Made by a program: the position numbers and the translations under genes. 64,000 nucleotides of DNA from a bacterium (GTDB taxonomy: Bacteria > Krumholzibacteriota > Krumholzibacteriia > LZORAL124-64-63), in contig JADJCK010000009.1 of NCBI GenBank assembly GCA_016703265.1, positions 226,570-290,569 of the forward strand. Reading direction: 5' to 3'. Positions within the stretch are counted from its first letter, which is position 1. Each line of letters begins with the position of its first letter. This document shows positions 18,069 to 19,847 of this stretch, piece by piece. The notes beneath the pieces were generated by a model. The model had not been told where the DNA came from and did no database searches. It saw nothing but the letters and a program-made list of their open reading frames with translations.

Positions 18069-18238
18069 AATCACACCGCCCCCACCGGAATCGTCACGAC
18101 GCCGTCGGCCAGCGGCAACGCCGACTCGGACAGGCAAATCACGCATCCCGGTCCGATCGGTCGGTCCAGCCGCGCCAGGGTGCCGAAGTGCCGCACGCCG
18201 TCGCGCCCGGGCGAGGTCGGCCACGTTCAGGAGTTGGG

Positions 18239-19450
18239 TTGTGCCGCTGAAATTGTGTCCGGCCGCGTCAGGCAATGGCGCGGCCGGCTCTCTTTCCGGC
18301 CACTAGAACGCGTACTTCAGATCATGCACCCGCTGCCTCTCCAACACCCGTGTCCGCACCCGCCGCCCGTAGTACTCCAGCCACCGCCCCGGCAGGGTGA
18401 TCCGACTCGCGAATAGCCGACTCTCCAGCAGCTCCGCAATCTCCAGCCGATCCGTCCGCATCCCCCGCATCTGGGCCGGCGTCGGACTTCCCCGCACCTT
18501 CTCCTTTCGGCCCTTCATGTAGTTGCGCCACACCAGGAACACCGCGAACCGTTCGGCGCTCGCCTGTCGCCGCTTCGACCACGCAATCGTCTCCCGCTTG
18601 TGATTGGCGCTGCTGTGCCGCAGCAGCATATCCGCCAGATTCACCGGGAACAGCCGGTTGCGCGCATCCCGCCGCTCCTTGCTCGATGTCACCAGGTGCG
18701 TCACTTCGCACGGCAACTGCCGGATCGCCCGGGGATATGCCTGGTGCTCGTCGCTCAACACTGTCAGCCGCCGTTGACCACCGGCGACAACCTCGAGCAG
18801 GTGCGTCACATCCTTCAGCACCGCCTTGGGATCAGGCCGACCGTATTGCTGCTCGAGGCGCTCGCGCTTGCGCTTCTGGGCGTCGGTCATGGTGCCGGAG
18901 CGGCGCACCTCGCTGTCGGTGAAGTAGACGATGAGATCGGATCCGGGCTCGATGGCCGGATGGTGGTGGAACGGCCAGAACTGGGAGTGCTCGAACGACA
19001 CGAAGCCGTCGATGGCGACGATGGAAGCCGGCTTTGCGTCCTGCATCTGCTGTGTGTGGTACAGCATGCAGTGCCGGCCGAGCCGCGCCAGCTGGCGATC
19101 GATGGTGGAAGGCGCGACCCGCAGGTCACGCGCGATCTGGCGATTGGCCATGCAGCCGACGGTCTTCATGATGATCTGCCCAAGGACATCCGGCCTCTTG
19201 AGCCAGTAGGTAGTCGCGAAAGTCTGGGAGCTGAATGACCGGCGGCAGCACTGGCAGAGGAACCTGGGGATACGCTTTCGCTGGCACTGACTCCAGTGGT
19301 AGCCAATGCGTTTGAAGCGCCATCCTTGGCGCAAGCCACTGTGGAATGGGCAGTTGGGGTTGGGACAGTGGGGTGGTTCGAAAGATCTGGCGTTGGTGTT
19401 CATGTCCGGCCCGGGCATCAACTAGGCCGGACACATTCTCGGCGGCACAA
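18239..19450 (-). mobile_element. IS element (zinc-ribbon DDE transposase, IS1595/IS1-like) with 26-bp imperfect terminal inverted repeats and a 12-bp target-site duplication
   Basis: IR-L TTGTGCCGCTGAAATTGTGTCCGGCC (18239-18264) and IR-R GGCCGGACACATTCTCGGCGGCACAA (19425-19450) match 23 of 26 as reverse complements. Direct repeat TCAGGAGTTGGG lies immediately outside both ends (18227-18238 and 19452-19463). Confidence 0.7.
18303..19421 (-). CDS. transposase (N-terminal zinc ribbon CPNPNCPF...CQCCRRSF, HTH, DDE domain)
   Basis: 372-aa ORF filling the IS. N-terminal architecture is typical of IS1595/IS1-type transposases. Confidence 0.65.
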   Translation of the reverse strand: MMPGPDMNTNARSFEPPHCPNPNCPFHSGLRQGWRFKRIGYHWSQCQRKRIPRFLCQCCRRSFSSQTFATTYWLKRPDVLGQIIMKTVGCMANRQIARDLRVAPSTIDRQLARLGRHCMLYHTQQMQDAKPASIVAIDGFVSFEHSQFWPFHHHPAIEPGSDLIVYFTDSEVRRSGTMTDAQKRKRERLEQQYGRPDPKAVLKDVTHLLEVVAGGQRRLTVLSDEHQAYPRAIRQLPCEVTHLVTSSKERRDARNRLFPVNLADMLLRHSSANHKRETIAWSKRRQASAERFAVFLVWRNYMKGRKEKVRGSPTPAQMRGMRTDRLEIAELLESRLFASRITLPGRWLEYYGRRVRTRVLERQRVHDLKYAF

Positions 19451-19847
19451 GTCAGGAGTTGGGCGGTGCGTGCAGCGCAGGCCCGCACGAAGCGCAGGAA
19501 CGCTGTCTCATCGCCGACGCGGGCCAAGTCGCGGATGTCCCGTTGCAGGCAAGTTTGAACATACGAACTGAAGTAGAGGTCGCGGTCCAGGCCGGGGTCG
19601 CGTGTCAGGGCCGGGTACGCGCCGCGCCAGATGCGACGGTAGAGTTCAGGCAGCGGAAGCGCCCGGGCCTGCATTCGACGTCCACGGCCATCTTGATGTA
19701 GGGCAGCAAACCGGGAGCGTACTGGATCTCGTCGATGATGACCGGTCCGGGATACCGCTGCATGAACTGGGGCGGGTCACTGCGCGCCAGTTCCACCAAG
19801 CGCGGGTCATCGAGGCTGAGATACGTCCGCCCCTCGCCTGCGATTTC

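Follow-up and report, generated by a model that had tools for sequence, protein, structure and literature searches.

What interrupts an ATPase gene of the COG1373 type in contig JADJCK010000009.1 of a Krumholzibacteriota genome assembly, and how much of the target was duplicated on arrival? The 64,000-nucleotide stretch analysed here (64 kb; hereafter the window) carries at this place a mobile element that a preliminary description had assigned to the IS1595 family and credited with an unusual 12-bp target-site duplication. We found that it is an ordinary intact insertion sequence (IS) from a large, poorly catalogued IS1-related family, and that the earlier family assignment was probably wrong and the duplication length probably over-read. 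With a probability of about 80%, judged from sequence comparison, the element is a complete and probably still functional member of a large family with a single open reading frame (ORF), a distant relative of IS1 in the IS1/IS1595 superfamily, and generated a 9-bp duplication in a DUF4143-coding target.

Ends, flanking repeats and empty site

The element is bounded by inverted repeats of 26 nt at 18239–18264 (plus strand, TTGTGCCGCTGAAATTGTGTCCGGCC; transposase-distal end) and 19425–19450 (minus strand; forward letters GGCCGGACACATTCTCGGCGGCACAA, minus-strand reading TTGTGCCGCCGAGAATGTGTCCGGCC; transposase-proximal end). They are complementary at 23 of 26 positions (88%) and form the longest inverted pair of the region. 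A degenerate pattern of the inverted repeat did not occur in any of 100 shuffled versions of the window, and re-alignment confirmed the imperfect 26-bp repeats as first described. Within the distal repeat, TTGTG(C/T)C half-sites occur twice, at a distance of 14 bp. The repeats, and the one intact minus-strand ORF between them, bear out the claim that the IS is complete. The conserved core, TTGTGCC...GGCACAA, spans 18239–19450 (1212 bp), and its ends are invariant in the 109–110 non-redundant full-length related copies that we compared. By reference to the ends of these copies, the element is best delimited as 18237–19452 on the minus strand (1216 bp), that is, the core plus a terminal dinucleotide on each side (GG at 18237–18238 and GT at 19451–19452; family consensus RG and CY). 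The 1212 bp given previously thus hold for the core, and 2 bp more per end are element-derived.

Outside the core, the exact 12-mer TCAGGAGTTGGG occurs only twice in the 64 kb, at 18227–18238 and 19452–19463, where the expected number of occurrences is 0. The left copy abuts the inverted repeat and the right copy lies one base away, with G19451 in between, so that the direct repeat reported immediately outside both ends is exact and, on the right, offset.

When the element is taken out together with one repeat copy, the reading becomes continuous again (FVRACAARTAQLLNVADLAR). A Pfam match to DUF4143 (5e-5) spans the reconstructed junction and a match to AAA_14 (6e-8) lies upstream, which gives the target the domain content of a COG1373-type gene; the element landed in its DUF4143 domain. 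Three proteins that are 89–95% identical to the region in the best BLASTP segment (P0273, P0274 and P0338) read ARTAQLLNVADL(S/A)RD without a break. The contig that encodes P0273 (L168) has flanks 92% identical to those in the window, carries the repeat once and reads CGCACGGCCCAACTCCTGAACGTGGCCGAT, with GCCCAACTCCTGAACGTGGCC; the reconstructed window site, CGCACCGCCCAACTCCTGAACGTGGCCGAC, is the same as in this contig (empty-site stretch GCACCGCCCAACTCCTGAACGTGGCC). Because an uninterrupted, 92%-identical homologue carries the repeat only once, the event was a simple insertion. The ATPase homology does resume beyond the element, as had been proposed, and the empty site expected from its removal can be reconstructed and agrees with a natural uninterrupted homologue.

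Length of the target duplication

The flanks of related copies were compared to the flanks in the window. Loci were gathered from genome contigs (80), from metagenome contigs (79) and, for a few, by exact look-up, with relatives 43–92% identical; flank composition was tallied over 108 full-length copies. Look-ups of the close homologues P0062, P0050, P0035, P0392 and P0391 returned mostly the same few fixed insertion sites and added little to the duplication statistics. By scanning flanking direct repeats in all registers from 6 to 19, we found exact runs of at least 8 bases only at a spacing of the core length + 13, at nine loci including the window, and the longest exact run in any other register was 6. 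The central seven bases matched at 9 loci, as against an average of 0.13 after shuffling the flank partners. In these clean loci, 2 bp separate core and repeat at either end (2 + 9 + 2), for example CAATAGGTG-AG-TTGTG...CACAA-CT-CAATAGGTG in locus L004, and likewise in L011, L125 and L130. Nine bases match in five of the clean loci and eight in the other four, an outermost base being mismatched.

The dinucleotides that separate core and repeat are restricted on both sides (left: GG 51, AG 27, GA 14, AA 8; right: CC 59, CT 32, GT 7). C stands at position -2 in 2 of 108 copies versus 49 of 108 for C at the corresponding target position, +12. Since this composition is unlike that of the target, the two proximal bases are read as element-derived and the duplication as 9 bp long. 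In the register of the related copies, the inferred 9-bp duplication in the window, CAGGAGTTG, has its left copy at 18228–18236 and its right copy at 19453–19461, and the additional identities are T18227 with T19452 and GG at 18237–18238 with GG at 19462–19463. The 12-bp repeat is most likely this 9-bp duplication plus three coincident bases, and a length of 12 bp appears unlikely from these comparisons. With nine clean copies sharing a register consistent with 2 + 8–9 + 2, the duplication that had been singled out for its length is probably nothing unusual.

The alternative is that the element is confined to 18239–19450 (or extends to 19451) and that the window holds a real 12-bp duplication, or a 13-bp one with one mismatch, from a stagger atypical for the family. 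We regard this as improbable. In its favour, the two 12-mers are identical throughout and occur nowhere else in the window, extending the comparison to 13-mers leaves a single mismatch between left and right (12 of 13 positions), and it accounts equally well for the empty site. Three of the nine clean loci also match at three or more of the four boundary positions, slightly above shuffled pairs (P about 0.04), whereas the boundary matches in total are not above chance (14 of 36 versus 10.9 expected under the shuffled null, P 0.18). IS1 occasionally makes duplications of other lengths. The 12-bp duplication has to contend, however, with a 1-bp offset at the right end only, with non-duplicated dinucleotides between core and duplication in every other clean copy, in the same 13-bp register, and with proximal dinucleotides that are element-like and not target-like in composition.

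The 9-bp duplication has its own difficulties. It predicts the same empty site as a 12-bp duplication, it is called from relatives that are 50–92% identical, and a recognisable duplication is present in only ~12% of the 108 full-length family copies. Further, one end of the element reads GGTTGTG and the other, on the element strand, ACTTGTG, where the family consensus is RGTTGTGCC. The terminal C of this AC is unique among the 108 copies, as the proximal ends of the other 107 are purine-G, purine-A, TG or CG. Either the proximal end of the window element has mutated or its junction is atypical. A true 13-bp stagger in which the proximal 2–3 bases were overwritten by flaps from the donor flank was considered and rejected, as the proximal dinucleotide is hardly ever target-like (C in 2 versus 49 of 108 copies) and boundary matches are not above chance.

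Across the family, the flanks show a symmetric, non-random composition as far as 13 bp out, with a loosely palindromic consensus of YG/CAnnnnnTG/CR. Of this consensus, the CA...TG part agrees with the window target, which reads CC/CAACTCCTG/AA on the element strand. Reading the conserved flank positions as a longer inverted repeat was rejected, since the clean copies carry true direct repeats there. Individual flanks of copies without a recognisable duplication still fit the target consensus. Missing duplications could possibly result from recombination between copies, from replicative or intramolecular transposition, or from chimeric assembly across repeats. Within genomes, no left-right partner flanks of duplication-less copies, as predicted by recombination or replicative inversion, were found; the comparison brought up only two left-left identities.

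Two pairs of copies share 11 bp at the same end and then diverge (L003 and L005 in JADJQR010000001.1, caggctgtgag; L041 and L078 in CAWGRT01, cgtcgactagg). The shared 11 bp lie directly outside the transposase-proximal end, and neither simple insertion nor recombination predicts them. Two other loci, L082 (1433–1453) and L084 (556–576), have a partial, 19–21-bp copy of the inverted repeat in tandem outside a complete proximal repeat (TTGTGCCATCGAAACTGTG-GG-TTGTGCCATCG), which suggests insertion into or beside the end of an older copy.

Transposase and family placement

The transposase gene occupies 18303–19403 on the minus strand (366 codons plus stop; ATG at 19401–19403, stop at 18303–18305). 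The ATG at 19403 is the likely start because homologues have 366 aa, the same length, and an alternative start at the TTG at 19421 (372 aa) is less probable. The window holds no further copy of the gene. The domains follow in the order zinc ribbon, helix-turn-helix and RNase H-like core; in the core, conserved acidic residues sit on strand 1 and follow strand 4. An N-terminal zinc ribbon had been recognised before and does hold, with its second pair as C-x2-C; the first pair is C-x4-C (CPNPNC) and not CPxCG. The complete ribbon, CPNPNC...CQCC, consists of C-x4-C, 31 residues and C-x2-C (C13, C18, C50 and C53, at 19245–19367). Putative catalytic residues are D132 (19008–19010), D218 (18750–18752) and N255 (18639–18641), with R262 (18618–18620) seven after N255.

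In alignments with 20 close and 49 diverse relatives (24–58% identity), the conserved positions are C13, C18, C50, C53, D132, D218, R262, R270 and N294; C13, C18, C50, D132 and D218 are invariant and C53 is nearly so. The window transposase keeps every residue that is invariant in both sets. The position seven before the invariant R262 is N in 39 of the 49 members, D in 10 and E in none, and by spacing and alignment N255 is the putative third catalytic position. Pfam returned a weak helix-turn-helix match only and a viral fold library generic integrase and RNase H matches only; an exact-sequence look-up of the window transposase retrieved no record, and a sequence search of the PDB no relative.

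Similarity to IS1 was found at the level of profiles. By aligning the family profile (A2) with an alignment of IS1 transposases (A3) in hhalign, we obtained a probability of 91.2% (E 9.8e-7) over 189 columns, covering IS1 residues 25–216. Against InsAB' of E. coli alone the probability was 88.6%, with the match confined to the zinc finger and helix-turn-helix. hhalign pairs D218 with the D of the IS1 motif TDGW (SDEH/TDEH versus TDGW), R262 with R198 of IS1 and RH..A.H.RETIAFSK with RQHLARLGRKSLSFSKS of IS1, and by spacing E191 of IS1 corresponds to N255. The NCBIfam IS1 model (NF033558) gives weak, sub-threshold matches in 44 of the 49 members (best E 1.5e-11), and several members are named 'IS1 family transposase' by NCBI. 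These comparisons argue with moderate strength that the transposase is a remote homologue of InsAB' from the zinc finger through the helix-turn-helix to the catalytic core.

The family shares with IS1 the zinc ribbon, helix-turn-helix and RNase H-type core in the same order, as well as the aligned second catalytic D and R...R-x-S/T-x-x-F/W-S-K block. The IS1 end pattern is GGnnnTG, with inverted repeats of ~20–30 bp (ISfinder), and one of the two ends of the window element, GGTTGTG, fits it, the other reading ACTTGTG (IS1A ends: GGTGATG and GGTAATG). Single-ORF subgroups are recognised in the IS1 family (the ISMhu11 type in ISfinder). The 8–9-bp duplications of the nine clean copies, window included, are also IS1-like, and duplications of 9 bp and 7 bp have been reported for ISKpn14 of the IS1 family (PMC6194868). 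Differences from IS1 are nonetheless substantial: one 366-aa ORF in place of insA and insB joined by a -1 frameshift (232-aa fusion), a length of 1216 versus 768 bp, ~130 extra residues (including ~45 between core strand 3 and the second D and ~70 at the C-terminus), and N or D, not E, at the putative third catalytic position. Weighing against the IS1 relationship, all similarity to IS1 falls below curated cut-offs: the window protein scores 26 bits against NF033558 (cut-off 100) and in the N-terminal region only, Pfam DDE_Tnp_IS1 is absent from the window protein and 48 relatives, and the hhalign register of the first catalytic D is doubtful. A divergent single-ORF member of the IS1 superfamily is the most fitting description of the element, which fails the curated IS1 thresholds and is without the insA/insB frameshift arrangement.

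It is also possible, though doubtful in our estimate, that the family represents a distinct and uncurated family-level branch of the IS1/IS1595 superfamily, with a D-D-N/D centre, variable terminal dinucleotides outside the TTGTGCC core, a palindromic 13-bp target and copies mostly devoid of duplications. If this were true, the prevalence of copies without duplications would suggest replicative or intramolecular transposition as the main pathway.

Membership of IS1595 itself, a family characterised by 8-bp duplications and by transposases with a zinc ribbon at the N-terminus and a DDNK-type catalytic motif, has little chance of being correct. The present element resembles IS1595 in its N-terminal zinc ribbon, its similar size, its single ORF and the N or D, followed seven residues on by a basic one, at the putative third catalytic position. 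The NCBIfam 'IS1/IS1595 N-terminal zinc-binding' model matches 10 of the 49 members, and four of the nine clean copies effectively have 8 matching bases. However, the basic residue is R and not K, and the duplication is mostly 9 bp and not 8. Neither the Pfam models DDE_Tnp_IS1595 and Zn_Tnp_IS1595 nor NCBIfam IS1595 models match the window protein (E <= 1) or the 49 family members (E <= 0.01). It is IS1 whose model matches consistently and whose alignment gives the profile-profile match, IS1595 having been compared by library models only. The affiliation given in the preliminary description is thus not sustained.

A weak NCBIfam match to ISL3 (E 3e-6; 30 of 49 members) involves the zinc-ribbon and helix-turn-helix region only, at residues 10–139 of the 372-aa ORF (5–133 of 366), and reaches 26 bits versus a cut-off of 180, with the catalytic domain unmatched. 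ISL3 ends are of the GGCTCTT type, unlike those of the present element. That nothing was inserted at all, the repeats being fortuitous or an assembly error, is hardly conceivable, as the repeats did not arise in any shuffle of the window, elements homologous to this one and sharing its ends are found in more than 100 other contigs, and the target has an uninterrupted homologue.

Proposed mechanism, distribution and target remnant

Transposition could proceed as follows, by a cut-and-paste or a replicative pathway. The zinc ribbon and helix-turn-helix of the 366-aa transposase would bind the ~28-bp terminal repeats, with the two TTGTG(C/T)C half-sites of each end as putative binding sites. The RNase H-fold core (D132, D218 and presumably N255, with R262 seven on) would expose the 3' ends of the element, which would then be transferred into a target cleaved with a 9-bp stagger, and gap repair would leave the flanking 9-bp duplication. 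In the window, the insertion would have duplicated CAGGAGTTG, and three neighbouring bases that happen to equal the element termini would make the visible repeat 12 bp long. An RNA hairpin is predicted on the minus strand at 19402–19434, where an 11-bp stem pairs the inner proximal inverted repeat with the AUG region (minimum free energy -22.8 kcal/mol; z -1.86, a modest value). In read-through transcripts that enter from outside the element, this predicted hairpin may mask translation initiation.

The family is large, with more than 3,279 proteins in a word-indexed search and about 2,100 clusters at 50% identity in a profile search. The clusters come mostly from uncultured Krumholzibacteriota-like, Fibrobacterota, Gemmatimonadota and Myxococcota genomes. 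At least 9 copies are present in one 4.7-Mb contig and several metagenome-assembled genomes are multi-copy, while a tblastn search of 72,556 plasmids was negative. For the genome itself the insertion is routine, one more IS in a dead gene. Its wider use lies in documenting the ends, target preference and conserved residues of a large IS1-like clade whose catalytic domain is not covered by Pfam and which NCBIfam reaches only below threshold. With these features a proper profile could be built, and such elements and their miniature derivatives could be annotated in metagenome-assembled genomes. The case also illustrates how an ordinary 9-bp duplication comes to look like an odd one of 12 bp when the ends are drawn 2 bp too far inward.

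One candidate miniature derivative lies in the window at 61511–61660, a non-coding element of ~150 bp (146-bp core at 61513–61658) with the same type of inverted repeats. Its ends are GG+TTGTGCCGTCGAAATTGTG and CACAATTTCGGCTGCACAA, the left one beginning GG+TTGTGCC, and its centre is AT-rich. It sits between two divergent ORFs, and its flanking 9-mers match at 6 of 9 positions. The window and ~190 fetched loci yielded no further miniature element of this kind. It probably derives from the same family as a non-autonomous form.

The interrupted gene has the AAA_14 and DUF4143 domains expected of the COG1373 ATPase to which it had been assigned; what the IS interrupts is, however, a heavily deleted and frameshifted remnant. 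The upstream part of this pseudogene (19453–19892, minus strand; Pfam, and tblastn with P0271 and P0273) comprises an AAA_14 fragment whose P-loop is broken, then lacks ~63 codons internally, continues into the start of DUF4143 and ends in CAARTAQLL. Compared to P0271 and P0273, the P-loop is destroyed (GARQVGKTT to VSVCARRTT), the ~63 codons are lost after PGRF, and ~123 more, with a frameshift, between ADLAR(D) and PGRDGVRHF. The second of these deletions, out of frame, lies in the downstream part (18074–18236, minus strand; tblastn), between NVADLAR and the C-terminal 47 residues that run to the stop, so that residues 116–127 and 251–297 of P0273 are matched and 128–250 are absent. At both internal deletion junctions (18207–18214 and 19656–19659) the flanking tblastn segments overlap by 4–8 bases in different frames, and at 18207–18214 LAR(D) codons are joined to PGRD codons; such overlaps may result from deletion between short repeats. 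Two more COG1373-type paralogues with AAA_14 and DUF4143 are present in the window on the minus strand, at ~2113–3321 and ~27117–28325. In tblastn they are unbroken over 240–303 aligned residues, with 28–37% identity to homologues of the interrupted copy.

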